DNA of 64,000 bases from Dictyostelium discoideum. Taxonomy: Eukaryota. A model generated the notes under the pieces. That model saw only the letters and a list, made by a program, of their open reading frames with translations, did no database searches and was not told the DNA's origin. Where the stretch lies: contig CM000154.2 in the NCBI GenBank assembly GCA_000004695.1, forward strand, positions 4,416,001 through 4,480,000, written 5' to 3'. This document shows, in pieces, positions 5,497 to 64,000 of this stretch (the stretch's first letter is position 1; each line of letters opens with the position of its first letter). The position numbers were made by a program, and so were the translations under genes.

Positions 5497-7041
5497 TTAT
5501 TTATTTCTAATTTTTCTTTTAATTGAAACTCTTTCTAAATTATAATTTGAACATTCAAAAGCTTGAAAAGGTGGAACGAAATGAATATAAGTTCCAATTG
5601 TTATACAAGCAATAATCGGACCAACCATATATGGCCAAATTTTATTAAATATTCCAGTTACAATTGCCGGACATAAACATCTAGCCATATTAAATCCAAA
5701 TATATAATTTGGTGAAATACCAGATGATGCAATAATTGAGAAACCTAATGTAATTGATATGAAAAATGCACCAACTGCTCCACCAATTATTGGAGTTTGT
5801 CTTCTATCCAGGGCAGTTCCAAAAGCAATATACAAATTTAACATTGAAAACATGAATTCCATACCAAGTGCTCCACCACTACTTATATCACCACCATATG
5901 TACACATACCTAAATTTGTCCTTTTCATAACTTCGAATGGAATTATACCTCTAATAATCGCTGATCCAATTATACCACCTGTAATTTGAAAAATAATATA
6001 AAATAAACATCTTATAACTTTTTTTTTATTACACCCCACTCTATTAATATAAAATTATAATTATAATAAATTATAATAAAATTAAATTAAATTAAATTAA
6101 ATACATACAGGATGTATAACCTGAAAAGAAAGTTGCAATTGTAATTGACGGATTTAAATGACCACCACTAACAGGGGCACAAGTTAAAATTAATAAGTAT
6201 AATAATGGTACATGTAAAACAGCAGAAGTTGCAGGCACTCTATAATTTGGTACAGAATTTACCAATGTTTCACCATTAAAATCATTAAGATTTGATATAT
6301 ATGAATAATCAAAATAATTTACAGACGAAATGAAAATACCAATTGACATAAATAAAAATAAAGCACTACCAATCATTTCTGTAACTGATGCTTTGTATAA
6401 TTTACTATCGAATAATTCATTGTATCCTGATATTCTTATAATTTCATTTATTAATTTATCTTTAAATTTTAATTTATTTATTTCACTTTTTTCATCAATT
6501 GATGATTGTTTTGATTTTAAATCTTTTTCACTATTCTCATAATCATCGTCATCATAATTATAATATTCATCATCTTTAAATGACTTTGGAGATATTAAAG
6601 TACTACTTGTATTATTATTATTATTATTGACACTATTACCACTACTACCACTTCTATCACTTCTACTATTATTACTAATATTTGATTCAATATCATAGTT
6701 TATGGGTATTTCTAAATCTATTTCATCATTTTCAATACCATCATTATGATGTTGATTTTGTTGATGTTGATGATGTTCAAGATGTTGATGATGTTGATGG
6801 TGTGGGTGGTGTGGATGATGTTGATGGTGTTGATGGTGTTGACTTTGATAAATATGGTGTATTGTATGTCTTTTTCCATAGTCATTATATTCATCATTAT
6901 TATTAGAACCATACCTTATTAAGCTAGCATACTTATAAAATGGAGCTGCTAATTCATATCTAATTTTTTTTCTTCTCCTTATACTTATATTACTACTATT
7001 ACTATTTCTACTACTACTATTACATGTACTTGGACTTTTTA

Positions 7042-7110
<69 letters not shown>

Positions 7111-7147
7111 TACTACTAATACTATTACTATTACTATAACTACTCAT
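5497..7147 (-). CDS. Major intrinsic protein / aquaporin-like channel with a ~250-aa low-complexity N-terminal extension, 2 exons
   Basis: Exon 1 is 7147 down to about 6109. It starts MSSYSNSN, has a 24-residue poly-N, then an (HHQHH)n His-rich tract, then TM helices, and ends ...SGGHLNPSITIATFFSGYTS. Donor is GTATGT at 6108 (alternative GTATTT at 6104). Exon 2 runs from about 6017 (alternative acceptor at 6040) to the stop at 5497-5499. Exon 2 contains VIRCLFYIIFQITGGIIGSAII and GFNMARCL. The two MIP signature boxes read NPS and NMA instead of NPA/NPA. The overall six-TM topology is recognisable. The exact exon-2 acceptor is ambiguous; both options are in phase. Confidence 0.7.
7043..7105 (-). 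repeat. Coding (AAT)n tract encoding poly-Asn inside the aquaporin-like gene
   Basis: Plus-strand (tta)n translates to the N24 run on the minus strand. Confidence 0.9.
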
Positions 7148-10906: not shown

Positions 10907-13500
10907 TTACATTTTATCCCAAGACCAAACTTTAAGATTACTAGCTAATGAACCAGTAAATAATTGATTTTGATTTCTCCAAAGACAAAGAATTGAAGAT
11001 CTTGTATTGAGAGAAGCTAAATTTTCGTATTTATCATGACTGAAAACTTGTAACCAATCACCGCTACCTGCAAAGATACCTTGATTAGTGACGTGAAGAG
11101 TTTCAACACGATCCTTACATTTGATGGTATTGACGCAACGTGTAGTTTTAAGATCCCAAATTCTAATAGTTTCATCATGAGAACCACTGTAGAGCATATT
11201 GTTATGAGCGTAAAGTGTTTTGACCCAACCTTCATGACCTTGGAAATTGGTGAGAATAGTACCAGTAGCTAAATTCCAAACGTAAATTTGTTGATCATTT
11301 GAGCCAGAGAATAAGAGATTACCCATTGCGCAAACCGATTTAATGGCACGAGTATGACCTGATAAAGTTTTAACGCATTCATATGATCTCATATCCCAAA
11401 CTTTAACGGTTTTATCGTTGCAACCAGTGTACAATAGATTGTCTTGAATGAAAATGGTATTGACTTCGTTGGATTCTTTGATCTCTTTGATGGTTTGTTG
11501 AGTGTTGATATCCCATTCCTTAACCAAAGAGTCTGCACCTGCTGTCAAAATATTTTGATCGAAACCTGGACGTTTAATGACTGCTCTAATCGATTTACCA
11601 TGTGCTTTAATGTTGGTAACATGTTTCAATTCAACAGCATCCCAAACACCGATTTGGCCATCATTTGAACCACTATATAATCTTAAACTATCACCAGTGA
11701 TACATTCTGATTGTAAACCTCTAACTGTATCGATATTCTTTATTGATGTTAAATCCCATTTTTCAAATTCTGAACGATCTGGTGTTTGTTCCATTGATGA
11801 TGTTGATGTCGATTCTGGTGTTGGAACATTCGATGATGATGTTGACGATGCTGATGCTGCTGCTGATGATGGTTGAATTGGTTGTTGTGGTGGTGGTGAA
11901 TTTCTAGAAACTTGAATTGAAATTGGTGCTGCATTTGTAGTTGATGATGATGAAGATGATGAAGATGATGATGATGATGAAGATACGCTACTACTATTAC
12001 TGTTAACACTACTACTATTGCTACTATTATTTATATTATCATTATTATTATTATTATTATTACTATTATCATTGTTACTGCTGATGCTACTATTATTATT
12101 ATTTATATTATCTTGTTCTAATTTTACATTACTATTTTCTTTTGGTGGTGATACAGGTGATTTATTTACTACATTTGATTGTGAAGGTGTTTTTACAATT
12201 TGAGGTACAGGTTTTGAAGTTGGTGAAGAAGGTGATTGCTGTTTATGTAAATTATTACCAGATGGTTGTTTAACCAATGGTGGAGAAGGTTTACTTTTTT
12301 GTTGTTGTTGAGCTCTAATTCTTTCCAATTGTTCTTGAAGCATTTTCTCTTCATCATCTAATGAGATTGGTTGTTGAGCACCACCACCATTTCTAAAGTA
12401 ATTCATATCGTAGTTATTCTTTGGACCACTACCATTACCATTCAACCCGATTGCATCATGGAAATCCATTAATTGTACGACGGGTAATGTACCTCTTAGG
12501 AGGGCTTTCTTTGATTGATTGATTGGTTTCAACTTTAAAAAGTCACAAACTGGATTACACTTGTGTGTTTGAAGGAATTTGTGGAAACCCGTCTCGCCCA
12601 AATTACCCTCGCCAAAGCCCTCGCCTGATTTCGTATGAATTTGAGGATCAGTGTAGAAATCGTTGACACCTTGGATATCAACGATCAACAATTCATGATT
12701 GGAGAGTTCGTATGAGAAATGAGAGAATGATTGTGGTGTATTTCTAGCATCACTACTAACGTAACCACTGTTGTTGTTATGTTTCTTGTAATCTCCCTCA
12801 ATGAATGGTTCACCACCACAAACTGGATAAGGTGGTGGATGATCAATCAATTCGTAAACGTATGATGGTAAGAATGTAATTGGTTTTGGTGGTTTCGCTT
12901 CATTGAATTTCTCTGCCCATTTAGCACAAAATGTTTGCATCAATACATCTGTAAAGTATGAATCTCTTGTCGTCTTTTTATTGGTTGAAAATTTACCAAC
13001 TAATCCTTGATCTGGTTGACTCCAATCCTTTAATTTATGTGCTGTTCTACAACTACCCTTTGCAAATGGAGTCTTCTCAATTGAAACACATACAATACTA
13101 TGTGTCCATTTTGGTTTTAAATCATCACCAATTGTTAATTCCCATCTTTTTTTTTTAATAATAAAAAATAATTATTAGTAAATTTAATAATAAAAATTGA
13201 AAAAAAATTGAAAAAAAAAAAAATTAAAAAAAATTAAAACCATACTTTATTGCTCTTTCACATTTTGTACCTGCAATAACATCGGCAACTGGGAATTTTT
13301 GATTTAATAATGCCAAAGCTGTCATTTGAAAAATAAATAAATAATAATAATAAAATTTTAGTTTTATTAGTAATTTGTTCAACTTTTTTTAAAAAAAAAA
13401 AAAAATAGGTTTCTATGTAGTATAAAAAATATAAAATAAAATAATATTTATTTAAAATTGATAATTTACCTGCTGCTGCTCCTGTTTTTTTTTCTTCCAT
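10907..13500 (-). CDS. mhkC: Alpha-kinase + WD40-repeat protein (myosin heavy chain kinase B/C family), 3 exons, 780 aa
   Basis: Exons are 13470-13500 (MEEKKTGAAAG, donor GTAAAT), 13246-13318 (ALALLNQKFPVADVIAGTKCERAI, donor GTATGG) and 10907-13145. Exon 3 begins WELTIGDDLKPKWTHSIVCVSIEK and continues through the alpha-kinase C-lobe (GGEPFIEGDYKKH...LLIVDIQGV...YTDPQIH...FGEGNLG). After an S/N/Q/P-rich linker come seven WD40 repeats (GHTRAI..., WD motifs). The symbol is suggested only because the architecture and the 780-aa length match what I recall for MHCK-C. It is not verified. Confidence 0.75.
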
Positions 13501-18986: not shown

Positions 18987-19269
18987 NNNNNNNNNNNNNN
19001 NNNNNNTTCTTTTTATTTTTTTTAATTTTTTTAATTTTTTTTTTTTATTTTAATTTTTTTTTTTTTTTTAGAAATCTGGTGATTTCTTGTGATGAAAAAA
19101 AAATCAAAAATAGTTGCAAGATATTTTTTATTTTTTTATTTTTTATTTTTTATTTTTTTTTTTTTTTTTTTTTTTTTCACAAATTTAATTTTAAATTACA
19201 ATCTTATTATATTTGTTTTTTTTGGTTTATTTATTGCTTTATTTATTTCTATATTCTTTTATTTAAACC

Positions 19270-21847
<2,578 letters not shown>

Positions 21848-22039: not shown

Positions 22040-23610
22040 TTAGTTATTGTTATTATTAATATTTTTTAAAATGATTGATTCATTAATTTCCCAATCTTGA
22101 TGATTATAAGAACCAATTGAAGTTAATAATTCTTTTGTGCTATTTGACATTTTGAATAAACTATTGATTTTAAAATTTGATACCATTAAATTTTGATTAT
22201 CGTGAATGTGGAATGTTGAATATCTTTTGGAAGACATTCCATTTGATTTTGAAACTAATTCAATCCATTCTTGGTAATCAATCTCTTTGCAATTGTAATT
22301 ATTTTCTAAAAATTTATAAATTGATTTCATTTCAATTGAATTACCATTTAAACTGTAAATTGAAATTGGTTTTGATTTATTTTGATTCCAACTGTTTTCA
22401 TTGAATATTAAATCGATTGTGGTTTTAGCTATAGTTGTAACTGGAGTTGTGAAAATTGATTTATAAATATTTGGATAATAACCAATCTCTTTTGAAGTTT
22501 TTAATAAAAGTGATACGAAATCATTTGAATGACCTATACCTGTTATTGGATTTGAGAATATATCTGTATTTATTATAATAATAATAATAATAATAATAAT
22601 AAAATGTTTATTTTATTAGAATCTATAAATTAAATATTAAAGGTTTATCATATATGATCTATATTTATTAATTACATACCAGGTGGTCTAATAATGATTG
22701 ATGGTATACCTCTTGATTCTGCTGCGTTTGTTAATAATTTCTCTGAAATAACTTTACATTGAATATATCCAATTGGTGTAGTATCAAAATTTGGTAATAT
22801 ATTTGTTTCTTCAAATTCTTCTCCATCTTTAAAAGGATGATTAATAAATACTGCAATTGATGAAAAATGAACTATTAACTTTTGTGAGCTATTATTTGAA
22901 ACTGATAATTTTACAATTTGATTGACGCTGTTAACATTTACAGTTTTACTTTCTTCGTAGTTTGATTTTAAATTTAAATCTGCTGCTGAATTTATAATAA
23001 TATCACATTCATTTGATAGTTTTAAATAATCTTGTTCAGTTAAACCAAATTTATCTTTTGAGATATCACCAATCATTGGAATGATTTTAATTAATTGATC
23101 TTCACTTATTTGTTTATAATATTCACTATTTTCAATATTACTTAATTTATCATTTGATATATTACCTGTATGATTGATTATTTTTGTTAATCTTTGATTT
23201 GGTGATTCTTTGTTCATATTTATTAATTGATGTTTCTTTAAATTATTAATAATTACATCGATTGGATTTGTTAATTTTGAATTATTTCTTATTAAACAAT
23301 AAATTTTTGATATATTGTTCATTTTAATTAATTCTGTTAATAAATATGCACCCAAGAATCCTGTTGAACCTGTTAAGAATATTGATTTACTATTATTACT
23401 TTTATTTAATATATTTTTAATTGAATATGGTCTTGAAATGATTGATTCATTTAATTTCATTTCATTTTTAATAAATTCATCAAGTGATTGTTGTTCTTTT
23501 TTAACCAAATTATTATTATTATTGTTATTTTTATTATTATTAATATTATTATTAATATTATTATTATTTTTATTATTATTATTATTATTATTCTTATTAT
23601 TATTATTAAT

Positions 23611-23641
<31 letters not shown>

Positions 23642-26600
23642 TTATTATGAGCAGATAAAATAATTTCAATTGATTGATTGATTTTATTATTTTGTAATTG
23701 TTGAATTGTGATAATATTATGACCTAATTGATTATCGATAAAATTCTTTAATTGTACAATCACTAAACTATCCATACCATATTGTGTGAGTTGAAGGTCT
23801 TCATTGATTTTAGATTCATCAATTGATAATAATTCACAAATCTTATTTAAAATTGTCGAACGAATAATTTCATTATTATTATCACCATCATTACTACCAG
23901 TGAAAGATTTGATTTGATTTGATTTTTTAACAATATTAATTTCAAAATCAAATTTTGAATGGTATTGATTTGTTAAAGTTGATGGTAAAATTTCAAAATT
24001 GAAATCTGATAAACAATAGTTTGGATATTGATGTTGATTTTGAATGAATAAATCTAATGAACTAATAACGAGTTGAGGTGAGAATAGTTTTAAAATTGAA
24101 CTCTTGAACATTGTTTCAATTGCATTATTACGTGATACGAAACCAGTTGATGATATCGCACCTAAATTAATGGCTAAAGATGGTAATCCAATTGAATGTC
24201 TATACTTTGATAATGAATCGATAACACTACATGCACTAACATAACAACATTGTTGATCTGATCCCAATATTGAGACTACTGATGATGCCATTATAAATTG
24301 TTTGATATTCCATGAACGATTAATCGATTGATTGTGAAGATTGATTGCTCCAATTGTTTTAGCACCATGTGTATTATTTAAACGATTCATATCGACTTGT
24401 TGGACATCACCAATATCATTCATAAATGCAAAATGAATGATTGAATCAATATTTGTAATATTTTCATTTAATTCTAATTGATTTAATACTTGATTAACTT
24501 TATTTGAATCTTCAATATCGATTTGATTGAAATGGAATTTAATATTATTATCTTTTTTAAATTTGCTTTGATTGATTAATAATTCTAATTCCCATTTTAA
24601 TTTTGATTTTGAAAGTATTATTATATTTTCAATTGAATCATTTGAATATTTAACCAAATATTTTAATATTTCTAAAACAATACCAGTTTGACCAGTGAGT
24701 AAAATATTCTTACCAATATTTAATTTTGAAATATCATACGAATGTTTCAATATGATTTGATTGTTATTACTTTGATAATTATTATAAACTCTATTAAATT
24801 CATCTTGATTGTGATTAACAATGATTTTACCAATATGTTTTCTTTGATTTATATATTCAATTGCATCTTTAAATTGATTATTTGAATATTCAATGATTGG
24901 TACACTTAACTCTAATTTATTTGAATTAATCATTTTGATAATTTTCTTTAAATAGCTTTTGATTAATTTACTTGTGAAATCTTCTACATACACATTACCA
25001 TAGTTCATATTAAATTTGTAATGATTGTTTGTCATATAATCATTTGATGTGAGATGAATGATACTTAAATCAACGATACGTCCTGATAAATTTAAACATT
25101 GGAAATTTGAATCCATATACTCTGATGATAATGTATTTAATATTAAATCTACACCTTGTTGATGTTGTTCAACTACACCTAATTCTATTAATTTATTCTT
25201 AATTTCATAAACATAATCTTTATTACGAGATGAATAGATAGCAGTAATTAATGATCCATATTTATTTATTAAATATTCTTCTTTATCTTTTGAACCAACT
25301 GTTAAAAATATATAACCTTGATGTTGTTTACTTTTTAATAAATCTAAAGATGATATACCGACACCACCTGCTGCTGAATGAATTAAAATTGATTCATTTG
25401 ATTTTAAACTACCAATACCATAGAGACTATGTAATGATGTAATATAAACAGATGGTATTAAGGCTGAAACTGAATGACTATAATTTAATGGTTTATAATA
25501 AATGTAATCATAATCTACAATAATATGAGAACTACTTGTTTTTGAGCCGACACCACAAACTTGATCACCAACTTTAAATTTCTTTACATTACTACCTAAT
25601 CTTGTGATTATACCGCTAAAGTCTTTACCAATTTTTGGATTATTAAAACCAATACAATTTTCAATTTCTTTACCATATTTAATATCTAAATTCGTACCAA
25701 TCATACCGATATACATTAAATAATCTTTATAATTCATACCAGTTGCTTTAATTTCTATCTCTACTTCATTTGAATTTAATTTATCTTTTTTACTATATAA
25801 TTGATATTCTAAATTTGAATTTAATTGAATACATAAATTATCTTTATTGTTTTCAAATGATTTAGATTGAAGTTTTGATTTAATATTATTTGATCTTCTA
25901 CAATATCTTTCATAGTATACTCTATTATTGTTAATCGTAAATTCTTTTTGAATATTATTATTTGGATTGATTAAATAATTGATTAATGATAATTGTTGAT
26001 TATTTTCAATTGAAACATTATCATAATTTAAAGTTAATAAATCTAATTGTGGGAATTCAACGAAATAACGAGCAGCACCAACAATTGATGATGATAAATA
26101 ATTATCAGTGCTTGAATTTAATGATAATAATAAATGTTTGAAATTATTTGATAATTCTAATTTTAATATTAATTGATTAATTTGAATGTATTCAAATGTG
26201 ATCTCTTTGAAATTTGAAGTATTCATTATTGATTCAATTGATTTTAAAAATATTATTAATGTTTTATTACAATCATCTTTAGTTTGATTATTTGTGATCC
26301 ATGATTGAAATTCATTAAAATTATTAATATTAATGATTTTATGTTTTAATTCTTGATTTAATGTTATTGAATCAAGAATACTACTGCAACTATTTCTATT
26401 ATTATCACTATTATTATTATTATTATTATTATTGTTATTACTAAATAAAATAATATTATTGAAAGAATTTAATTGATCTAATGATATTGATTGTTCTGAA
26501 ATGATTTCATTAATTGTTGGTTTTCTAGTTTGAATTAAAAATAGTAAATTATCATTACCAGACATTATTGTATCTCTATAATTACATTGATTTAAAAGGT

Positions 26601-29600
26601 TGATCCATTTCTCTTGTTTCATACAACATCTATCAGGTCTTAATTCGATATCACTATCAGAGGATGGCCACCATTGTGAAAAACAACCGAAAACAGAATC
26701 ATAAATAAATGATTTGTGTGGTGGTTCTATTAATAAAAGTTGACCATTTGGTGTTAATATATTATGAATTTCATTTAATGTTGGTTTGAGTTTCTTAACG
26801 ACATGCATAACATTTGACATTACAACGAAATCATAATAGGATGCTTTAAGATCTTGATCTAATAATGGTTTTTCTAAATCTAATACACGATAGATAATAT
26901 TTAAATTGTTGCGATTTGTAAATGATGAGAACTTTTCTTTAATTTCAGCGAAAAATGATGCAGATATATCACTCCATGTAAATTCTATATTAATGATTGA
27001 TGTTGTACTATTATTATTTAATAATTTACAAATCTTTTCTAAAATTAATAAACTAAGACTACCAGTACCGCCACCTGCTTCTAATATACGAAATACAATT
27101 GGTTCATTTAAAATTGGTTTTAGAGTTTCGACTATAATTTCACTTAATAAACTATTCAATGGTTGAACTACTCTTGAATTCTTATAAAAGTCATCAAGAT
27201 AACCACTTTCAAATAATGATTGTGGTGTATCTGTAATGGAATCATCATCTTTTAATGGGAATAGCTGTTTTGCCATTATTTTAGTTGTTCTAATAAATAA
27301 CTCTTCATTTTTTGATTTAATATTACTGTGATCATTGTCAAGGTTAACAATATTACTGTATTTCTTTAAATTTTCAAAAATGAATTTGAAAAGATTTTCA
27401 TTTGCAGAACTATTATAATATAATTGTTTAAATTGATTATATTCTAATGTTGTTAATGATTCTAAATTGATACTTGGACATCTATTATTAATATGTTTAT
27501 AAAATAATGACAATAATGATTCATTTGAAAGAAATTGATTATCTTCTTCTTTGACACTAAATTCATCTACTCTATATAAATGTTTGAATTGTTCAGGTTT
27601 ATTAATTACTGAATCTTTTGATTGAAGATATGGTGTATAGATATTATTTGATGGTGGTTCACATATTATTGTGCTATCAGGATTGGAGTCAAGTGAAACT
27701 AAAGCGCAAACCACATTTGAGATATCAACTAATAATGTACCATTTGGAAGTATGATTTTAACTGATATTGAATATGTTTGAGAATTGGTTCTTGGTTTAA
27801 TATCTGAAAAAACATATAATTCTTTAATATCATCATCATTATCATCATTATTGTTGTTATTTTTATTTAATGATGGAATGTTTGAAGAGTAATATTTGAA
27901 ACCTTCAATTTTATCAAGTACTACTGGTTGTGTGACTGCAACTAATGACCCATGTAAACAAGTATCTAAAATTGCTGTATTTAAAAATGTATTCATATTG
28001 CTATTGTTTATTAAATGATTATATTCTTTTTGATTGTAAATTTCATTTAATGATACTATTGCTAATGAACAATTATTACCGATATGACATTGTTTTACAC
28101 CTTGAAATAAACCTTTGTATGTTAAATTTGTTTTAATTCTAATAGTTTCATAAAAATCTTGTTTTGATATGCTTGTAAAATTACATTTATCTTTTAATGA
28201 TTGAATATTAATTAATTTGTTACTGATGATACTGTTGTGTTTGGTTAAACTAAAATTACCAAGAGATGTTAATATCCATTGATTTGTTTTTTGATCTTTG
28301 TAATAACTTTTGATATTGAATTCATTCTTTGATAGTGGTGCAATTGTAGTTTGTAAACATTGTCTATTACCTTCTGTTAATACTAATGGTGATTTAAATT
28401 CTAATGAGCTAATTGTAATATCTTGATTTGGATAAATTGATAATAAATTGTGAACATATCCCATTCCTGGATAATAGAATTTATCACTAACTTGATGACC
28501 TTTTAACCATTGGAATGGTGATTTCTTGATATCGATAAATGTTTGATATGATGGGTTAGGTGAATCTGTATTATTGCCAAGACCATGAATGGATGGACCT
28601 TCACTTTTAATCTTTTCAAGTAATGAGTTTAGTTTAAAGTATTCTTTATCATCCCATTGGTAAAGTGGTAAATTATTTAATTGGTTTGAATAGTTATTAT
28701 TGTTGTTGTTGATTAATTGTGATTTGAAATTAATATCAAAATTATTTTTGACATATAATAAAGAGATTGTCTTTAAGAATTCATTATAATCATTCTTCTT
28801 TTTATTTAATGGTGAATAGATTGTAATGTTTTTACCATTATTAAAGTAACTTGATTGAGTTGATTTCATTTGATTTAAGTAATATTGTAATGTTGGATGT
28901 GGTGAAACTTCAATGAATGTAATTTCATTACCCATATCATTTGATTCGATATGTTTGTAAAGATTTGTAATTGTTTGTGTGAAATATACTGGTTGAATAA
29001 TATTATCAAATACATAATTTGCATTGAATGGCGAGCTTTGATGATTGAATAAATTGGTTGTAACTGTTGAAAATACTGCTATCGATGGTTGTTTTGATGA
29101 AATATTTAATGAACATACTTCATCTTTAATCATTTGTTGACTTGATGTATGAAATGATGATAATGATCCTAACATTGAACAAAAGATATCATTTGATTTG
29201 AATTCTTTGGTAATTTCATTTAATAAGTCTTCTTTACCTGCGATAACGATTGATGTCGGTGAATTGTAACATGCAATTTCTAATGATTTATATTTAGTTG
29301 TAGATTGATATTTATTAATGAATTCATCTGAACTAATATTAACTGATAACATTCTACCTGTACCTGTGGTTCTATTTTGAGCTACTGATCTATGGTAAGT
29401 CAAGTAACATAATGTTTGAAAATCAATCATACCTGAACAATATGGCGATGATACTTCACCAAGAGAATGACCAATGATAATATCTGCTGAAACACCCCAA
29501 TGTTTATATAATTCATAGAGTGATACTTGAATCATTACATTTGCAGGTTGTGCTAAAATTGGTTGATGAATTGATATTAAATCTTTATCATCAATTGATC

Positions 29601-32016
29601 TTAATTTATCTAAAACTGAATAACCATAATATTTGAATAACTCTTTATCGAATCTATTGACAGATTCTCTAAATATTGGTTCATTATCATATAATGATAA
29701 TGCCATTTTATTATATTGTGAACCTTGACCACATAATACCATTACTGTGATTGGTGATTTCTTTTTTTCAACTGTAATATTTGAAATTAAATTATCACTA
29801 TTATTTAATTTAATTTGATTATTTTCATCTTGAAATTCATTCCAATCACTTGCGATTATAACTGATTTTTGAATTAATGATGTTGATTTGAATTTAATTT
29901 GATTATATACAAATTCTTTGAAACTTGTTGTTGTTGTTGTGGTTGATGAATTTGAATGTTTAATTATTGATGATTTATAATTATTTAATGATGTTGATGA
30001 ATTACTTGAGAGTGGTATTAAATATTTCTTTTTTTCTTCACTTAATTTATTATCAATTTCCATTTTGTGATAATCATTATGATTATTTTCAAATTCAGAT
30101 AATATTAAACAAACATTTGAACCTAAATTAAAATTGATTTTAAATTGTTAATATAAATTATTTGGAAAAAAATTATAAGATGATGTAAATATTTACCAGT
30201 TATACCGAAATTATTAATTAACATGACAGTTGGTTTATTTTCATTAAATTTAATTGGTTCAGTGACAACTTTTAATCCCCATTCTTTAAAATTAATTAAT
30301 GGATTTGGTTCTTTGAAATTAATATTTTGAAGAAATAGTTTATTTTTAAACATTAAACAACATTTAATTAATGATGCAACTCCTGAACATGCTGTTATTA
30401 TTTTTTATTATTTATTATTATTATTATAAATAATATTTAGTGTTAGTAATTAATGATTGACTATGGTTATTTATACAACTAAATTTAATTAACTTACCTT
30501 CAGTATGACCAATATTTGATTTAATTGATCCAACTAAAACTTGTTTATTATTATTATTTGTTGTTGTTGATGCTATATTATTGAAAACTCTTGATATACC
30601 TTCTAATTCTATTGGATCACCAGTTGGAGTACCAGTACCATGAGTTTCACAATAATCAATATCAGATTCATTGATTTGACCATTGGTTGATTTGATTGCT
30701 AATTTGATATTTTCACACTGAGATGATTTCGATGGTGAATAAAAGTTTAATTTATCAAAGTTACCATCGATATTTGAACTTGATCCTTTGATTACACAAT
30801 AGATGTTATTTGAATCTTTGATTGCATCTTTTAATTTCTTTAATACAACGATACCAACACCTTCTGAACGAACATAACCATCAGCATCCGATGAAAATGT
30901 ATGACATCTACCTGTTGGACTTAAAAGACCTAATTGAGTAAATGATTTTGAAAGGTGTGGGTCTATAAATAAATAAAAATTATTTGATAATTAATATATA
31001 ATCTTTTTCTTTTTTTAATTTTTAATTTGTCACATACCTAATAAAAAATTAACACCACCAACAATTGAAACATTTGATTTATTTGATTTAATTGAATTAT
31101 ATCCACAATTAATTGCATTTGATGAACTTGAACAAGCTGTATCAATTGTTAAATTTTCGCCTCTATTTTTTAAAAAAAATAATCATGATAATAACAGTTA
31201 GTATTATAATTAAGTTTTTAGTGTGTGCCAAAAAAGATAAATCAAAAACATACCTAAAATCAAAGCAATAACCTATTCTATTTGCAACGGAATGAGTTGT
31301 GGAACCAAAAATATTATTTTGAGTTTCAAATGGTGATCTTTGAAGAATAGAATAATCAATAGTACTACTACCAATAAATGTACTTGTATTGGTACCACGT
31401 AAACTAATTGGATCAATACCACTATCTTCTAATGCTTCCCATACACCTGTTTGTTGGTTTTATTTTAAAAAACATTATTAATAAATAAAAATAATTAATA
31501 ATTAAAAAAAAAAAAAAAAATGAAAAAATAAAAAAAAAAGTAGAAAAAAAAAAATTTAAAAAAATTTTTGGATTATTTATTTTTTTTTTTTTTTTGGCGC
31601 CATTGAATGAATATTTCCAAAACACTTAACAAATACATACATTTTAATAATAATCTTTGTTGTGGATCTATTGAACTGACATTATCATTGCTTGGATTAA
31701 TTGCAAAGAAGATTGGATCAAATTGTTTCCATTCATCAAGTGGAAGTAAACCAGCAAACTTTGAAACGATTTCACCATTTAAATAATAATTATCAGACCA
31801 TCTTTCAGAAGTTGTAACGATTCCATCTAATCCATTCAATAATTCATTAAATAATTGATTTGGTTTTGAAATTGATTCTTTTAAATTACCACTTGGAAAT
31901 CTTAAACCAATACCAATCACTGCAATATCACCACTATCAACATCATCATTATCATCATAATCATTTCTATCCCTTATTAATTTACTATTTCTAGTATTAT
32001 CTGTATTTTGTACCAT
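22040..32016 (-). CDS. Type I iterative polyketide synthase, copy A, 7 exons, about 3106 aa; KS-AT-DH-cMT-ER-KR-ACP-R
   Basis: Exons in plus coordinates are 31641-32016, 31254-31446, 31038-31162, 30498-30962, 30197-30391, 22680-30122 and 22040-22563. Donors are GTATGT x4, GTAAGT and GTAAAT. All phases were checked. Motifs: [23 protein letters not shown] and GSIKSNIGH; [10 protein letters not shown] and GHSLGE; [13 protein letters not shown]; C-methyltransferase [12 protein letters not shown]; [15 protein letters not shown]; [13 protein letters not shown]; ACP QYGMDSL; terminal thioester-reductase Rossmann fold [15 protein letters not shown]. The 96-aa ORF at 22040-22330 is the last exon and continues the reductase domain. 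Confidence 0.9.
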
Positions 32017-32853
32017 TTTCTCTTTTTATAAATAATATAAATATAAAATAAAAATAAAAATAAAATAAATTTGAAATTTAAATTATTGTTTAATATAAAT
32101 TTTTAAAAAGAAATAAATAAAAAAAAATTAAATTTTGGTTGGTTTATTATAAACTGTTCATTTTTAGTTCATATTAAATTAAAATTAAAACTGATATATT
32201 TAACAGCTTGCTTACTAAAATTTGTAAGAGGGGTGGGGGTGTGGTAAAAGTTTTTCGAAATGAAGATTAAAAAAAAAAAAAGTAATATAAAAAAAAGGGT
32301 TAGATTGTATTGATTAGATATTACCTGTAACAATATTTCTATGAATATCTTGTTATATTAATAACCCAATTTATTTTTAGTATACTTTACAATACAATAA
32401 TTATCGTCTCATTAAATTAAAAATTAATAATTATAAAATATTCAATTTTGATAATTAATTACCATTTTATACTAAATTTTATTTAATTTTTACTACGTAT
32501 GTACATTTTTATTTAATTAAATTAATTCAAAAATTTTAATTCTCCACTTGTCAGATATACACTAAGATTTAGATAATGATACTAAGGATAGAGAGAATAA
32601 TTTTAAATTCAATTCTTCATACTAAATAAGATCAAATTAAAGAAATTATTGATAATTATTATATTAATAATAAAAATCAATCACTTTTTCTAAATATTTC
32701 CCAACTCCAACCAGATTGAATTAGATGTAAAAGATAGGATTTTGAAGATATACATTATCTCATTTTTTAATTTTTTTTTTTTTTATTATTACTTTGATAA
32801 ATATTTTTTTAGTTATTTTTTATTAATTTATTATTATTTAATATTATGTTTTT

Positions 32854-33384
32854 TTAGTTACTGTTACTATTAATATTATTTAAAATGATTGATTCATTAA
32901 TTTCCCAATCTTGATGATTATATGAACCAATTGAAATTAATAATTCTTTTGTGCTATTTGACATTTTGAATAAACTATTGATTTTAAAAGTTGATATCAA
33001 TAAATTTTGATTATCATGAATGTGGAATGCTGAATATCTTTTTGATGATTTTCCATTTGATTTTGAAACTAATTTAATCCATTCTTGGTAATCGATTTCT
33101 TTGCAATTAAATTTATTTTCTAAAAACTCATAAATTGATTTCATTTCAATTGAATTACCATTTAAACTGTAAATTGAAATTGGTTTTGATTTATTTTGAT
33201 TCCAACTGTTTTCATTGAATATTAAATCAATTGTGGTTTTAGCTATAGTTGTAATTGGAGTTGTGAAAATTGGTTTATGAATATTTGGATAATAACCAAT
33301 CTCTTTTGAAACTTTTAATAAAAGTGATACGAAATCATTTGAATGACCTATACCTGTTATTGGATTTGAGAATATATCTGAATT

Positions 33385-33475
<91 letters not shown>

Positions 33476-36400
33476 GTAATAATAATATTAATAATAATAA
33501 TAATAAAATGTTTATTTTATTAGAATCTATAAATTTAATATTAAAGGTTAATCATATATTAAATATTACATACCAGGTGGTCTAATAATGATTGATGGTA
33601 TACCTCTTGATTCTGCTGCGTTTGTTAATAATTTCTCTGAAATAACTTTACATTGAATATATCCAATTGGTGTAGTATAAAAATTTGGTAATATATTTGT
33701 TTCTTCAAATGTTTCTCCATCTTTTAATTGATGATTAATAAATACTGCAATTGATGAAAAATGAACTATTAACTTTTGTGAGCTATTATTTGAAACTGAT
33801 AATTTTATAACTTGATTGATGCTGTCAACATTTACAGTTTTACTTTCTTCATAATTTGATTTTAAATTTAAATCTGCTGCTGAATTTATAATAATATCAC
33901 ATTCATTTGAAAGTTTTAAATAATCTTGTTCAGTCAAACCAAATTTATCTTTTGAGACATCACCAATCATTGGAATGATTTTAATTAATTGATCTTCACT
34001 TATTTGTTTATTGTTATTTTCACTGTTTTCAATATTACTATTTAATTTATCATTTGACATATTACCTGTACGATTGATTATTTTTGTTAATCTTTGATTT
34101 GGTGATTCTTTGTTCATATCTATTAATTGATGTTTTTTTAAATTATTAATAATTACATCGATTGGATTTGTTAATTTTGAATTATTTCTAATTAAACAAT
34201 AAATTTTTGAGATATTGTCCATTTTAATTAATTCTGTTAATAAATATGCACCCAAAAATCCTGTTGAACCTGTTAGGAATATTGATTTATTATTATTATT
34301 ATTTAATATATTTTTAATTGAATATGGTCTTGAAATGATTGATTCATTTAATTTAATTTCATTTTTAATAAATTCATCAAGTGATTGTTGTTCTTTTTTA
34401 ACTAAATTGTTATTATTATTGTTATTTTTGTTTTTGTTATTATTGATATGAGCCGATTTAATAATTTCAATTGATTGATTGATTTTATTATTTTGTAATT
34501 GTTGAATTGTGATAAGATTATGACCTATTTGATTATCGATAAAATTCTTTAATTGTACAATCACTAAGCTATCCATACCATATTGTGTGAGTTGAAGGTC
34601 TTCATTGATTTTAGATTCATCAATTGATAATAATTCACAAATCTTATTTAAAATTGTTGAACGAATAATTTCATTATTATCACCACCATTACCACTAGAA
34701 GAAGATTTGATTTGGCTTAATTTTTTAGAAATATTAATTTGATAATCGAATTTTGTTAGGAAATGATTTGTTAAAGTTGATGGTAAAACTTCAAAATTGA
34801 AATCTGATAAGCAATAGTTAGGATATTGATGTTGATTTTGAATGAATAAATCTAATGAACTAATAACGAGTTGAGGTGAGAATAGTTTTAAAATTGAACT
34901 CTTGAACATTGTTTCAATTGCATTATTACGTGATATGAAACCAGTTGATGATATCGCACCTAAATTAATGGCTAAAGATGGTAATCCAATTGAATGTCTA
35001 TACTTTGATAATGAATCGATAACACTACATGCACTAACATAACAACATTGTTGATCTGATCCAAATATTGAAACTATTGATGATGCCATTATAAATTGTT
35101 TGATATTCCATGAACGATTAATTGATTGATTGTGAAGATTGATTGCTCCAATTGTTTTAGCACCATGTGCATTATTTAAACGATTCATATCAACTTGTTG
35201 AACATCACCAATATCATTCATAAATGCAAAATGAATGATTGAATCAATATTTGTAATATTTTCATTTAATTCTAATTGATTTAATACTTGATTAACTTTA
35301 TTTGAATCTTCAATATCGATTTGATTGAAATGGAATTTAATATTATTATCTTTTTTAAATTTGCTTTGATTGATTAATAATTCTAATTCCCATTTTAATT
35401 TTGATTTTGAAAGTATTATAATATTTTCAATTGAATGGTTTGAATATTTAACCAAATATTTTAATATTTCTAAAACAATACCAGTTTGACCAGTGAGTAA
35501 AATATTTTTACCAATATTTAATTTTGAAATATCATATGAATGTTTCATTATGATTTGATTGTTATTACTTTGATAATTATTATAAACTCTATTAAATTCA
35601 TCTTGATTATGATTAACAATGATTTTACCAATATGTTTTCTTTGATTTATATATTCAATTGCATCTTTAAATTGATTATTTGAATATTCAATGATTGGTA
35701 CACTTAACTCTAATTCATTTGAATTGATCATTTTGATAATTTTCTTTAAATAGCTTTTGATTAATTTGCTTGGGAAATCTACGACTTCTACGTTATTGTA
35801 ACCCATATTAAACTTGTAATGATTGTTTGTCATATAATCATTTGGTGTGAGATGGGTGATACTTAAATCAACGATACATCCTGACATATTTAAACATTGG
35901 AAATTTGAATCCATATACTCTGATGATAATGTATTTAATATTATATCTACACCTTGTTGATTTTGTTCAACTACACCTAATTCTATTAATTTATTCTTAA
36001 TCTCGTAAACATAATCTTTATTACGAGATGAATAGATAGCAGTAATTAATGATCCATATTTCTTTGTTAAGTATTCTTCTTTATCTTTTGAACCAACTGT
36101 TAAAAATATATAACCTTGATGTTGTTTACTTTTTAATAAATCTAAAGATGATATACCGACACCACCTGCTGCTGAATGAATTAAAATTGATTCATTTGAT
36201 TTTAAATTACCAATACTATAGATACTATGTAATGATGTAATATAAATAGATGGTATTGATGCTGAAACTGAATGATTATAATTTAATGGTTTATAATAAA
36301 TAAAATTGAAATCTATAATAACATGTGAACTATTTGTTTTTGAACCAATACCACAAACTTGATCACCAACTTTAAATTTCTTTACATTACTACCTAATCT

Positions 36401-42868: not shown

Positions 42869-43100
42869 TTTCTTTTTTCTTAATAAATTAATATAACAAA
42901 TTAAAATAAAATATAATAAAATAAATGTGATATTTAAAAATTAAAATTAATAGAAAAAAAATAAAAATTAAATTTTATTTTAAACTGTTTAACAATTTTT
43001 AGTTCATATCAAATTAAAATTAAAACTGATATTTTTAACAGTTTTGCTTACAAATTCAAAGAAGATCTGGGTGTGCTGATATTTATTTGGGAAAAATGAT

Positions 43101-43137
<37 letters not shown>

Positions 43138-44221
43138 ACAGATTGCACAGGTATAGTTTAGATTTATTTATTTTTAATTTATATAAAATCAAAATCATAA
43201 TATAACCCCCACTCCCAACATTAATAATTAATTTTATTCTTATTTTAACAATTTTTTTTTTTTTTTTTCATAAAGTTTAATATTTTCGTTGGAATTAATG
43301 ATTGGTTTTAAAATTTATAAAAAAACAGTTTATTGCAACCACATTTGTACAATAATAATTTTATCTTTTTTTTAATTGGAAAATGGTTATCAAAATTCTA
43401 ATAATGAATTTAATTTTTTCTGTTGTTTTAAAACGTTTCAAGTGTGTTTATTTTTAGAAATAATAAAAAGTTTATTAATTAATTAAAAAAAAAAAAAATT
43501 TGGTGGTTGATTTTTTTTTTTTTTTAAAAAAAAGATGTTAAATTTTAACCCAATTCCCCCATTTAAAGATCAATTTATTTTAACAAACAAAACGTTTTTT
43601 TCAATAATTTTTTTTAATATTATTTTATATAAAAAATAGTCCCTACTCTTTAAAATAATAAATCATAAAAAATAAAATAAAATAAAATAAAAAAAAAATA
43701 TTTTTTTTTATTTTAGTGATATTACCTTTTTTTATTTGATTTTTATTTAAATTGCCTCGCCGAATTGTTTTCGATTAGTTTTTAAATTTTAAAAAAAATA
43801 TCAAATTCCACTGGAAAATTTATATTATTTTTATCTTTAATTATTTTTTTTGGTAATATAACCATATTTTAATTAAAAAAAAAAAAAAAATAAAAAAAAA
43901 TATTAGAATCAAACCTTTATACTTTTATTTATCAATTAATTTAAAAAAAAGGCACTTTAACAATTGGTGAATAGAATTGTACTATATTAGTTAATAGTTT
44001 TCATGGTGAATCACCAAAATTATTTTTTATATTTAATATCTTAGTTCACATTTTCATAAGATCAAATTTTAGAATTTTATTGTTTGCCATTCATTCTTTG
44101 AAAATGGTTTTTTATTTTAAAGAACAACCAGAAGGGGGTAAATTTTATTTGTGATTTTTATAAAAAAAAAAAAATTAATTCGATTTGATTTATGAACATG
44201 GTCTTCAAATGATTGATTCAT

Positions 44222-47200
44222 TTAATTATTTTTGTTTTTGTTATTACTATTATTTTTATTATTATTATTATTATTATTTTTGTTGTTGTTTTTAGCCGAT
44301 TTAATAATTTCAATTGATTGATTGATTTTATTATTTTGTAATTGTTGAATTGTGATAATATTATGACCTAATTGATTATCGATAAAATTCTTTAATTGTA
44401 CAATCACTAAACTATCCATACCATATTGCGAGAGTTGAAGGTCTTCATTGATTTTAGATTCATCAATCGATAATAATTCACTAATTTTATTTAAAATTGT
44501 TGAATGAATAATTTCATTATTAGCACCACTATTACCACTAGAGAAGGATTTAATTCGATTTGATTTTTTAACAATATTAATTTGATAATCAAATTTTGAA
44601 TGGTATTGATTTGTTAAAGTTGGTGTTAAAACTTCAAAATTGAAATCTGATAAACAGTAATTTGGATATTGATGTTGATTTTGAATGAATAAATCTAATG
44701 AACTAATAACGAGTTGAGGTGAGAATAAATTTACAATTGAACTCTTAAACATTGTTTCAATTGCATTATTACGCGATACAAAACCGGTTGATGATATCGC
44801 ACCTAAATTAATGGCTAAAGATGGTAATCCAATTGAATGTCTATACTTTGATAATGAATCGATAACACTACATGCACTAACATAACAACATTGTTGGTCT
44901 GATCCAAATATTGAGACTACTGATGATGCCATTATAAATTGTTTGATATTCCATGAACGATTAATTGATTGATTGTGAAGATTAATTGCTCCAATCGTTT
45001 TAGCACCATGTGCATTATTTAAACGATTCATATCGACTTGTTGAACATCACCAATGTCTATCATAAATGCAAAATGAATGATTGAATCAATATTTGTAAT
45101 ATTTTCATTTAATTCTAATTGGTTCAATACTTGATTAACTTTATTTGAATCTTCAATATCGATTTGATTGAAATGGAATTTAATATTATTATCTTTTTTA
45201 AATTTGCTTTGATTGATTAATAATTTTAATTCCCATTTTAATTTTGATTTTGAAAGTATTATTATATTTTCAATTGAATGGTTTGAATATTTGATTAAAT
45301 ATTTTAATATTTCTAAAACAATACCAGTTTGACCAGTGAGTAAAATATTTTTACCAATATTTAATTTTGAAATATCATATGAATGTTTCATTATGATTTG
45401 ATTGTTATTACTTTGATAATTATTATAAACTCTATTAAATTCATCTTGATTATGATTAACAATGATTTTACCAATATGTTTTCTTTGATTTATATATTCA
45501 ATTGCATCTTTAAATTGATTATTTGAATATTCAATGATTGGTACACTTAACTCTAATTTATTTGAATTAATCATTTTGATAATTTTCTTTAAATATCTTT
45601 TGATTAATTTACTTGGGAAATCTTCGATATCCACATTACCATAGTTCATATTAAATTTGTAATGATTGTTTGTCATATAATCATTTGGTGTGAGATGAGT
45701 GATACTTAAATCAACGATACGTCCTGATAAATTTAAACATTGGAAATTTGAATCCATATACTCTGATGATAATGTATTTAATATTAAATCTACACCTTGT
45801 TGATGTTGTTCGACTACACCTAATTCTATTAATTTATTCTTAATTTCATAAACATAATCTTTATTACGAGATGAATAGATAGCAGTAATTAATGATCCAT
45901 ATTTATTTATTAAGTATTCTTCTTTATCTTTTGAACCAACTGTTAAAAATATATAACCTTGATGTTGTTTACTTTTTAATAAATCTAAAGATGATATACC
46001 AATACCACCTGCTGCTGAATGAATTAAAATTGATTCATTTGATTTTAAATTACCAATACTATAGATACTATGTAATGTTGTAATATAAATAGATGGTATT
46101 GAGGCTGAAACTGAATGACTACAATTTAATGGTTTATAATAAATAGAATTGAAATCTATAATAACATGTGAACTATTTGTTTTTGAACCGAAACCACAAA
46201 CTTGATCACCAACTTTAAATTTCTTTACATTACTACCTAATCTTGTAATTATACCACTAAAGTCATTACCAATTTTTGGATTATCAATACCAATACCATA
46301 TTCAATTTCTTTACCATATTTAATATCTAAATCTGAACCAATCATACCAATATACATTAAATAGTCTTTATAATTTATACCAGTTGCTTTAACTTCTATC
46401 TCTACTTCATTTGAATTTAATTCATCTTTTTTACTATATAATTGATATTCTATATTTGAATTTAATTGAATATATAAATTATCTTTATTGGTTTCAAATG
46501 ATTCAGATTGGAATTTACTTTTTATATTATTTGATCTTCTACAGTATCTTTCATAGTATACTTTATTATTATTAATTGTAAATTCTTTTTGAATATTATT
46601 ATTTGGATTGATTAAATAATTGATTAATGATAATTGTTGATTATTTTCAATTGAAACATTATCATAATTTAAAATATATAAATCTAATTGTGGGAATTCA
46701 ACGAAATAACGAGCAGCACCAATAATTGATGATGATAAATAATTATCAGTGGTTGAATTTAATGATAATAATAAATGTTTGAAATTATTTGATAATTCTA
46801 ATTTTAATATTAATTGATTAATTTGAATGTATTCAAATGTGATTTCTTTGAAATTTGAAGTATTCATTGTTGATTCAATTGATTTTAAAAATATTATTAA
46901 TGATTTATTACAATTATCTTTATTTTGATTATTTGTAATCCATGATTGAAATTCATTATAATTATTAATATTAATGATTTTATGTTTTAATTCTTGATTT
47001 AATCTTATTAAATCAAGAATACTACTGCTGCAACTATTTCTATTTTTATTATTACTAAATAAAATGATATTATTGAAAGAATTTAATTGATCTAATGATA
47101 TTGATTGTTCTGAAATGATTTCATTAATTGTTGGTTTTCTAGTTTGAATTAAAAATAGTAAATTATCATTACCAGACATTATTGTATCTCTATAATTACA

Positions 47201-52690: not shown

Positions 52691-53975
52691 TAAATAAATT
52701 TGATATTTAAATAATAGAAATAAAAAAAAAAATTAAATAAAAAATTTGATGACGTTTATAGTTTTTGAAAAAATAAAAATAAAAAAAAGGTTAGATTGTT
52801 TGGATATTACTTTCAACACAAATAATTAATTTTAATTTTTGTTTTTTTTTTATTTGACCCAAAATTATGTTTTTTTTTATTTTTTTTTATTTTTTTTTTT
52901 TAAAATCTGGTGACTCTATATAAAAAACTATTTAATAGATTTAACTTAATGTATAGTTTGCTTTTGTGTTTGTAAATTTAGAAAAAAAAAAAAAAAATGA
53001 AATGTTGCAACTTTTTTATTTTTTTTGTTTCTATTTGATATCTCTTTTTTGTTATATGTTTACTTTACGAATTTATTACAGAAAAAATATAAATACATTC
53101 ATCTAAAATATAAATGCATTAATCTAAAATTTACATTTTTTCTGAAATCTAAAATTTTATACATTCATCTAAAATATGATTTTTTATTTCAGAAAGTGAT
53201 ACCTTTTGGTCACATATTTTACATGGCACAACTATTGGTGAAAGTTTACTCATTTCAGTCATTTTTAAATTTAAAGATAAAATATATATGTATTAGACAA
53301 AAAAAAAAAAATTAAAAAAATTTATATGAGACTCCTTATTATGTTTTATAAATTTTAATACGACAACAATTTCGACAAAAAAAACATTTTTTTTTCAAAA
53401 AAAAAACTTTTTTTTTCTGAAAATATTACACCCAGACACAAAAAATTAATTTTTCACCACTTTAATGCTGAAATTTTTACACCCTTAATTAGATTATAAC
53501 TTTTTTTTTTTTTTTAATTTATTGTTTTTATTTTTATTTTTGTTTTTATTTTTGTTTTTAAAATTAAATAATAAAAAAACAGTTTATTGAAATCAAGATG
53601 TTGAAGTATATTACAAAAGGTACAATGGTCATTTTTTTATTTTGGTTTTTTTTTTAAAATTAAAATAAAATAAAATTAAACAGTTTTCAAAAAATAAATT
53701 AAAAAAACTTTTTTTTAAACTGTTTTCAAGTGCGTTTTTAGAAATAAAAAAAGTTTTTTAATTATTAATAAAGAAAAAAAAAAAAAAAATTTGGTGGTTT
53801 TTTTTTTTTTAATAGAAGGTTAAAATTATTTTAACCCACTTCCCCAAAATTTAAATATATCAATTTGTTTTTAACAAAAACATTATTGGTTTTTTTATTT
53901 CATAATTTAAATAGTTTTTTTTTAAAAAAACTTTAATATAAAAGATTCTCAATTTATATATTTTATAATATTACA

Positions 53976-55730
53976 ATGAATACAATATTTACAATTATTT
54001 TAACAATTACAATATTAGTATTATCATTAATATTAAAAGTAAAATTTTAAAATATTATATATATTATTGACTATTAAAAATTAAACACTTACTTATACTT
54101 TTATTTTTTTAAATAGGATTTATTATTTGAAGGTAGGATTAAAAAAATTAATAAATTAATACCTGGTCCTTCTACAATTCCAGTTTTTGGTAATTTATTA
54201 CAAATTAACGCAAAAGATTTCCCAAAAAGTGTAAATGATTTCTATGAAAGATATGGCAAAGTTTTTAGATTAAGATTGGGTAGTGTTGAAATTGTTGTTC
54301 TAACTGGACCTGAAGTTATTGATGAATGTTTTAATAAAAAACATAGAGAAATTTTCAAAGAAAGATATATTAAATTCTCAAGATTTTTGGGTAAAGATTA
54401 TAATATTTTTTCTTCAAATGGTGATTATCATTATGTTCTAAGAGGAATTCTTACAAGTGAAATTACAACAAGAAAGTTAAATAATGGCAGATTAGAATCA
54501 AATAAATTTATTTTAGAAATGTTTAGTAATCTTTGTAAAGATAATAAAGAAACTCTTGTTAAAAATACACCAAATCAAATTAGGATTCTTGCTGTTAAAT
54601 TAATATTAAATTTCACATTAGGAATTGAAGAGAATGACGAAACCATTCTAATCATTGTAGAAAAGATTAAATGCATTTTTGAAGCTGCTGGATTATTAAT
54701 TTACTCTGATTATTTACCATTTTTATTTCCATTAGATATAAAATCAATGTCAAAGAATGATATTATTTCTAGTTACTTTTTTATAAAAGATTTTATAGGT
54801 ATAAAACTTGATGCTATTAAAATTAAATATGAAAAAGAAAATGAATTGAAAAATGAAACTACTGATGAAACATCTTCAAAACTAAACAATATTCCAATTA
54901 TTGAGAATTATTATAAAAATTATTTAGATGGTTCAATTCATTATGATTCAATCTTGTTTTCAATTTCTGATATTATTTTTGCAGCAGTTGATTCAACATC
55001 CAATGGGTTTAGTCTTTTAATTGGTCAATTAATTAATAAACCTGAAATTCAAGATAAAATATATGAAGAAATCATGAGAAATGATGAAAATAATAATACA
55101 AATAATATATCATTTGCTGATCATACAAAATATCCATATATTATTTCTGTAATGAATGGTAATTATCCATATATATATATATATATTGGTATTAATATGT
55201 GTTGATATATTTTTTCAAAAAATAAATTTTGTATTAATTTGAATAATAGAATCATATAGATATAATTCTTCAGTACCAATAACTGAACCGAATAAAACAA
55301 CAGAAGATGTTGAAGTAAATGGATATAAAATTGCAAAAGGTACAATGATAATTAAAAATCTTCGTGGTACACATTTATCAAAAGAGTTTTGGGGTGAAGA
55401 TGCTTTAGAATTTAAACCAGAAAGATTTAAAAATCAACCTTTAAATCAAAAAGGACTTTTTCATTTTGGTGCAGGTATGTTTTAAACTATTTTGAAATGG
55501 GAATCAAAATTTATCACTAATACAATAATAAATATTATTTTATTTAAACAGGAGCTAGAGCTTGTCCAGGAGGAAGATTTACAGAATCTTTTACTTTTAC
55601 TTTTTTGGTGATAATGTTAAAGAATTTTAAAATAGTCAATCCAACTGATATTCCAATTGATGTTGAAGGAGAAGTTGGTTTGGCAATGCAATGTAAACCT
55701 TTTGATGCCTTATTCATAAAACGTAATTAA
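53976..55730 (+). CDS. Cytochrome P450 monooxygenase, 4 exons, 502 aa
   Basis: Exons are 53976-54038 (MNTIFTIILTITILVLSLILK, signal anchor), 54117-55158, 55250-55474 and 55552-55730. Donors are GTAAAA, GTAATT and GTATGT. It has the I-helix AAVDSTS (AGxDTT-like), the PERF motif (EFKPERF) and the heme-binding loop FHFGAGARACPGGRF. It is divergently oriented to PKS copy C, whose ATG is about 1.4 kb away. Confidence 0.85.

Positions 55731-56162: not shown

Positions 56163-64000
<7,838 letters not shown>

Follow-up and report, generated by a model that had tools for sequence, protein, structure and literature searches.

How a social-amoeba polyketide synthase (PKS) lets go of its finished chain is the question raised by pks29, a gene in a 64,000-nt stretch of the Dictyostelium discoideum genome (assembly GCA_000004695.1, contig CM000154.2, positions 4,416,001–4,480,000, forward strand). 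This whole stretch is referred to as the window, and coordinates are counted from its first nucleotide. The window has a G+C content of ~20% and carries four tandem minus-strand PKS genes of ~10 kb each, with products that are ~90% identical within the window by tblastn. The C-terminus of pks29 is a genuine terminal thioester-reductase (TR) domain, here called R, which belongs to the extended short-chain dehydrogenases/reductases and probably releases the finished chain reductively. An initial annotation of the window called chain release in social-amoeba PKSs poorly characterized, and this fits the literature searched (PMC12828403; no Dictyostelium TR biochemistry was found).

Gene model and domain order of pks29

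The exons of pks29 were joined by hand at canonical GT..AG junctions, giving the following model.

22040..32016, minus strand: pks29 gene (DDB_G0290699), 7 exons, product of 3106 aa.
32016-31641, 31446-31254, 31162-31038, 30962-30498, 30391-30197, 30122-22680, and 22563-22040, minus strand: exons of pks29, GT..AG splice model.
22564..22679, minus strand: last intron, 116 nt, GTATGT...ATACAG, phase 1, splitting codon 2933 within R.
22040..22563, minus strand: last exon, 524 nt, 174 codons plus stop, aa 2933-3106.

By exact-sequence look-up, the spliced 3106-aa product is identical, residue for residue, to XP_635588.1 and UniProt Q54FQ3, which is named "Probable polyketide synthase 29" of D. discoideum AX4. 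A long minus-strand open reading frame (ORF; 22672-30063) holds the ACP, the linker, and the start of R, and ends at ..IIIRPP because of the phase-1 intron. This minus-strand ORF contains every element pointed out in the initial annotation (QYGMDSL, a poly-Asn linker, a 15-residue stretch, and YCLIR). A ~96-aa ORF had been taken for the next exon. Its span, 22040-22330, is only the ATG-delimited tail of the 524-nt last exon. Taken as a whole, that exon supplies the final part of the Rossmann domain together with the entire substrate-binding subdomain at the C-terminus of R. The Pfam match to R crosses the exon 6/7 junction and reaches aa 2980, and alignment to free-standing TR homologues extends to the C-terminus of the last-exon product.

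Pfam searches of the spliced protein gave the order ketosynthase (KS), acyltransferase (AT), dehydratase (DH), C-methyltransferase (CMeT), enoylreductase (ER), ketoreductase (KR), acyl carrier protein (ACP), poly-Asn linker, and R. Active-site motifs of the seven domains from KS through ACP are intact in all copies of the array. A single KS-AT-DH-(CMeT)-ER-KR-ACP set with its motifs present is what is found in pks29, which is thus classed, on its predicted domains, as an iterative, highly reducing type I PKS. Pks30, the product of the neighboring paralogue, serves as the active-methyltransferase reference in a recent survey (PMC12828403). The carrier region of pks29 comprises three features.

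23614..23889, minus strand: ACP domain, aa 2530-2621, Pfam PF23297 (E 1.4e-32), also PF00550.
23767-23769, minus strand: phosphopantetheine-attachment Ser2570 (GMDSL, within QYGMDSL), located by motif and coordinates.
23509..23658, minus strand: Asn/Lys-rich ACP-to-R linker, aa 2607-2656, 50 residues.

R is carrier-adjacent: the ACP with Ser2570 in GMDSL is followed by the 50-aa linker, and R begins at aa 2657. Between QSIEII and LVKKEQQ, pks29 has 56 linker residues, the most among the three R-bearing copies in the window; pks30 has 24 and pks32 has 31, in tracts upstream of 34405 and 57706, respectively. The differences in length come from expansion or contraction of AAT/AAC repeats.

Family and fold of the terminal domain

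The interval first assigned to the feature, 22040-32016, spans R but is the whole pks29 gene; R itself occupies 23508-22043. Its parts and key residues are as follows.

23508-22043, minus strand: whole R domain, aa 2657-3106.
22680..23508, minus strand: exon 6 part of R, aa 2657-2932, with a pre-Rossmann segment and the Rossmann fold.
23350-23373, minus strand: TGSTGFLG cofactor motif, aa 2702-2709.
23287-23289, minus strand: Arg2730 of YCLIR, near-invariant among homologues.
23119..23214, minus strand: Asn/Ser-rich insertion, aa 2755-2786, ~32 residues, between strand beta2 and the next Rossmann helix.
22858-22863, minus strand: Ser2872-Ser2873, with Ser2873 opposite the Thr of MxaA VST.
22765-22767, minus strand: Tyr2904, aligned with the Tyr of MxaA GYAQSK.
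22753-22755, minus strand: Lys2908, aligned with the Lys of MxaA GYAQSK.

Pfam PF07993 (NAD_binding_4) matched aa 2701-2980 over profile positions 1-257 of 258 at E 1.2e-45 and 156.1 bits, against a gathering cut-off of 20.1 bits. This match is far beyond chance. The top NCBIfam family for the C-terminal regions of pks29, pks30, and pks32 was TIGR01746, thioester reductase domain, with 172, 171, and 174 bits, respectively, and 185 bits when the Asn-rich insertion was cut out. Runners-up were the R domains of alpha-aminoadipate reductase, MxcG, and carboxylic acid reductase (CAR) models. The claim that the PKS ends in a thioester-reductase NAD-binding domain is borne out by both family assignments, and the NAD_binding_4 search proposed for the spliced protein returned a strong match.

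Among solved structures, the best sequence matches were the MxaA R domain (4u7w, E 8e-27) and a PKS TR (8v1x, E 3e-19). In the MxaA alignment, GYAQSKWVAEKL pairs with a 12-residue counterpart, and VST of MxaA lies opposite FSS. An AlphaFold2 model of R had a predicted template modeling score (pTM) of 0.73, a confident Rossmann core, and a mean predicted local distance difference test score (pLDDT) of 67.7. Foldseek searches of the Protein Data Bank with this model returned terminal PKS, nonribosomal peptide synthetase (NRPS), or CAR reductase domains at all of ranks 1-24. The best was MxaA (E 1.5e-20), 8v1x scored E 1.9e-19, and the remaining top-24 matches included PhqB, fungal and bacterial CAR, an archaeal NRPS T-R didomain, and a Mycobacterium tuberculosis NRP R domain. 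Only below rank 24 did other enzymes appear, namely a plant fatty-acyl-CoA reductase and sugar epimerases. The modeled two-subdomain fold, Rossmann plus C-terminal substrate-binding, is thus nearest to solved TRs.

The Asn/Ser-rich insertion splits the hidden Markov model match to R in two. It has a pLDDT of ~30 (model residues 99-130) and is predicted to be disordered. Bacterial TRs and free-standing Dictyostelium TR-like proteins are without it.

Catalytic residues and selection across the array

Aligned homologues down to 27% identity all keep the glycine motif, Ser2872, Tyr2904, and Lys2908; numbered on the domain query, the residues invariant in the 13 homologues are T46, G47, T49, G50, F51, L52, S216, Y248, and K252. 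Word-indexed homologue searches gave 17 and 6 matches, dominated by low-complexity words or close Dictyostelium relatives. Within the array, the R domains of pks29, pks30, and pks32 are ~90% identical, and none has a frameshift or stop. The catalytic Tyr and Lys, proposed initially as a check on the assignment, are kept in every R-bearing copy.

32857..34405, minus strand: R domain of pks30, with TGSTGFLG at 34250-34273, VHFSS at 33752-33766, and GYIQCK at 33647-33664.
56166..57706, minus strand: R domain of the presumed pks32, with TGSTGFLG at 57551-57574, VHFSS at 57056-57070, and GYIQSK at 56951-56968.

The YxxxK motif reads GYIQCK in pks29 and pks30 and the consensus GYIQSK in pks32. Pairwise Nei-Gojobori comparison of the paralogues gave dN/dS values of 0.23-0.39 for R and 0.27-0.40 for KS through ACP. 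Purifying selection acts on R as strongly as on the catalytic core. What is observed directly at this locus is which domain R is, that it follows the ACP, and its motifs, fold class, conservation, and selective constraint.

Outside the window, three free-standing proteins from Dictyostelium cf. discoideum and D. citrinum (P0010-P0012), each 418-441 aa long and starting at a Met of its own, also resemble R. They show 35-39% local identity to the R query by BLASTP and 41-44% in the multiple alignment, at 98% coverage, and retain the GYIQ(S/T)K motif and a second 10-residue motif. A role as trans-acting thioester reductases is possible, as is an origin in faulty gene models.

Proposed release mechanism

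Judged from the encoded protein, pks29 most likely frees its chain by reduction. The finished acyl chain would be thioester-linked to the pantetheine arm at Ser2570, and the flexible Asn-rich linker would let the arm reach the R active site. NAD(P)H would be held by TGSTGFLG and Arg2730 and would pass a hydride to the thioester carbonyl, polarized by Ser2873, Tyr2904, and Lys2908. Collapse of the hemithioacetal would yield a free aldehyde, which would either leave or undergo a second reduction to a primary alcohol. Catalytic activity, cofactor preference, two- or four-electron reduction, and product are predictions of this scheme.

Since the CMeT, ER, KR, and DH motifs are intact, a reduced, C-methylated, and reductively released chain is a reasonable expectation. 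The initial annotation had predicted a reduced, C-methylated aldehyde or alcohol from an R-type release. That prediction finds support as regards the type of product, but sequence cannot decide between aldehyde and alcohol.

Several points weigh against this mechanism. The usual catalytic Thr is replaced by Ser2873, a conservative change also present in several aligned homologues. Characterized bacterial and fungal TRs have Thr-Tyr-Lys and TR domains generally Ser/Thr-Tyr-Lys (bioRxiv 10.1101/2023.05.23.541938), so the Ser-Tyr-Lys of pks29 is taken as a conservative variant. All TIGR01746 scores are below the NCBI curated cut-off of 213.35, whether or not the insertion is removed, which makes R a divergent member at the level of the model. 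Because TIGR01746 was curated for bacterial and archaeal annotation, the shortfall is read as divergence and not as a different family. AlphaFold2, run on a shallow alignment of 13 rows, gave low confidence in the C-terminal 59 residues and in two loops, including the 32-residue Asn/Ser-rich insertion. The literature search found no biochemical or metabolite evidence for any Dictyostelium TR. Finally, the paralogue pks31 is without R yet is maintained and transcribed, so a synthase of this type can be kept without it.

Loss of R in pks31 and other explanations

52561-44222, minus strand: pks31 gene, product of 2623 aa, identical to Q54FQ1.
44193..44225, minus strand: R-coding relic of pks31, 33 nt starting at the stop codon, out of frame.

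In pks31 the stop codon falls within the poly-Asn linker, 23 codons beyond the end of the tblastn match (pks29 aa 2609). A protein-level search of the 1.35 kb downstream of pks31 found no significant R-like similarity (best E 0.1). The relic is identical at 31 of its 33 nt to the 5′ coding sequence of the R region in the three R-bearing paralogues, which indicates that the ancestor of pks31 carried R and that a secondary deletion removed it. The truncating frameshift falls in the linker repeat tract. What remains of pks31 is still open, with dN/dS of 0.35-0.38 against its paralogues, and its transcript is present in RNA-seq data (PMC12625978).

The best-surviving alternative, though an unlikely one, is that R has been kept without catalytic activity, for instance in a structural or docking role, and that chains leave by spontaneous or trans-acting hydrolysis or by transfer to another enzyme. 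Main evidence for keeping this low-probability explanation alive is pks31, which looks maintained and is transcribed after losing the domain. Pks5, the dictyodene synthase, is without any release domain (PMC9618038), so D. discoideum PKSs (DdPKSs) can off-load without one, and the TIGR01746 score below the curated cut-off points the same way. Against an idle domain, the cofactor-binding and catalytic residues are all intact in three independent copies, and purifying selection on R equals that on the catalytic core, where an idle domain would be expected to lose motif residues at ~10% divergence.

It is very unlikely that R is instead a fatty-acyl-CoA reductase (FAR)-like, or "male sterility," enzyme that makes fatty alcohols from free acyl-CoAs and is fused to the PKS by chance. 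PF07993 is common to FARs, and the plant FAR 7eoz is among both the sequence and the fold matches; these matches are far weaker than those to TRs (E 4e-6 vs 8e-27; fold rank 25). Pfam found no C-terminal "Sterile" domain in spliced pks29 at E <= 0.01, and in three paralogues R follows an ACP on the same polypeptide, as TRs that depend on a carrier protein do. Membership in the FAR class was rejected on these three grounds: no Sterile domain, much weaker similarity, and fusion to an ACP.

R* domains, the redox-inactive class, typically are without the catalytic Tyr and often without the glycine-rich cofactor motif. Least probable is that R belongs to this class and releases by Dieckmann/Claisen cyclization as in fungal PKS-NRPS tetramate synthetases, an assignment that draws on a shared fold and a common match to NAD_binding_4 and was rejected because Tyr2904, Lys2908, and TGSTGFLG are present and Pfam found no NRPS module or aminoacyl unit for cyclization.

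Comparison with known reductase domains

Reductive release through a terminal R thus stays the preferred reading for pks29, and it has relatives in several groups. Fungal iterative PKSs with a terminal R, whether highly reducing or non-reducing, release their chains reductively as aldehydes or alcohols and share the ACP-R terminus of pks29. Two fungal R domains, PhqB (6nki) and Neurospora CAR (8aep), are among the fold matches of pks29 R.

The closest solved relative, by sequence and by predicted fold, is the terminal R of MxaA (4u7w/4w4t) from the myxalamid PKS-NRPS of Stigmatella aurantiaca, which reportedly carries out a four-electron reduction to the alcohol. MxaA and pks29 R have in common TGxTGFLG, the Arg of CL(V/I)R, YxxxK, two subdomains, and a place right after the carrier domain. 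They are ~22% identical; MxaA follows the peptidyl carrier protein of an NRPS in a bacterial modular system, whereas pks29 R follows the ACP of a eukaryotic iterative highly reducing PKS. Unlike MxaA, pks29 R has Ser for the triad Thr, the ~32-residue disordered insertion, and an intron inside the domain. The Streptomyces coelicolor type I PKS thioreductase 8v1x, the second-best match by sequence and fold, is an ACP-linked terminal TR like that of pks29, but it comes from a bacterial modular PKS and is ~18% identical to pks29 R in the structural alignment.

Two apicomplexan enzymes appear, by analogy, to be the nearest experimentally tested precedents from eukaryotic microbes. Both reduce acyl thioesters in vitro: CpFAS1-R of Cryptosporidium acts on very-long-chain acyl-CoAs (PMC2995488), and the TgPKS2 TR of Toxoplasma (TgTR) carries out four-electron reduction of an ACP-bound substrate to the alcohol with NADH only (bioRxiv 10.1101/2023.05.23.541938). 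Like pks29, both are C-terminal R domains of protist type I fatty acid synthases or PKSs, a likeness drawn from their descriptions. The apicomplexan enzymes are modular, with multiple modules, whereas pks29 is iterative. TgTR has an Asn-Tyr-Lys triad, whereas pks29 has Ser-Tyr-Lys and retains the Arg usually tied to NADPH. Work on TgTR indicates that one residue can alter the cofactor use of a TR (bioRxiv 10.1101/2023.05.23.541938).

Within D. discoideum, the C-terminal TRs of other PKSs, including pks30 and pks32, have the same architecture with no substantive difference. An off-loading enzyme is carried downstream of the ACP by 21 of 40 DdPKSs, and the C-terminal domains of 19 of the 40 are described as "most likely monomeric thioester reductases" (PMC12828403). 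Figure 4 of that 2025 paper marks the TR-bearing DdPKSs; pks29 presumably belongs to the 19. Among DdPKSs, products are assigned for Pks1, Pks5, and Pks16 only (PMC12828403). The AX4 annotation of pks29 and its neighbors, exactly as modeled here, is already known, and the TR class in DdPKSs is published. Minor additions from this analysis are the loss of R in pks31 with its relic, the embedded CYP514A4, the variable linker, and the disordered insertion, specific to Dictyostelium, that interrupts the Rossmann fold.

Array and neighboring genes

42868-32854, minus strand: pks30 gene (DDB_G0290701), product of 3075 aa, exact match to Q54FQ2.
Stop at 56163, passing the window end at 64000, minus strand: presumed pks32 gene, incomplete in the window.
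53976-54038, 54117-55158, 55250-55474, and 55552-55730, plus strand: exons of the P450 gene CYP514A4, between pks31 and the presumed pks32.

The fourth PKS copy is presumably pks32, a name given by gene order. Start-to-start spacing is 10852 nt between pks29 and pks30 and 9693 nt between pks30 and pks31. The 5′ flanks of pks29 and pks30 (32017-32300 and 42869-43100) are alike (e.g., ...ctgttaaa.atatcagttttaattttaattt.atatgaactaaaaat...), so the duplicated unit takes in the promoter region. Genes flanking the array (5497-7147 and 10907-12943, minus strand; 19079-21847, plus strand) are unlike polyketide-tailoring genes; the flanks include a two-exon MIP/aquaporin gene and an alpha-kinase with WD40 repeats. 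A Pfam scan of the 922-aa ORF directly downstream of pks29 gave no match at E <= 0.001.

CYP514A4 is intact, with four exons and the heme motif FGAGARACPG, and its product is identical to Q54FP9. It is a possible candidate tailoring enzyme. CYP514A1, its mate in a 90% cluster, bears a nearby accession number, which suggests that CYP514A genes were duplicated together with this PKS region. P450 remnants were sought in the other inter-PKS spacers of the array, and none were found. A 165-183-nt stretch downstream of pks31 (43423-43587) is 75% identical to 53710-53878, just upstream of CYP514A4 (E 3.5e-26; both in minus-strand orientation). This likeness could reflect an older P450-containing repeat unit or a dispersed AT-rich element.

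Implications for Dictyostelium polyketides

If R is active, the products of pks29, pks30, and pks32 would carry a reduced C1, as an aldehyde or primary alcohol, and the same would hold by extension for about half of the 40 DdPKSs. A reduced C1 would, if true, narrow the mass-spectrometric search for orphan metabolites. The ACP-R didomain would then be the obvious first target for biochemistry.

More speculatively, the array might amount to a natural experiment, with three R-bearing synthases that are ~90% identical, one maintained R-less copy in pks31, and CYP514A4. Should the copies with and without R assemble an identical chain, one gene family would yield matched alcohol or aldehyde and acid congeners. 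Knock-out metabolomics could then show directly what R contributes and whether a P450 processes the reduced terminus.

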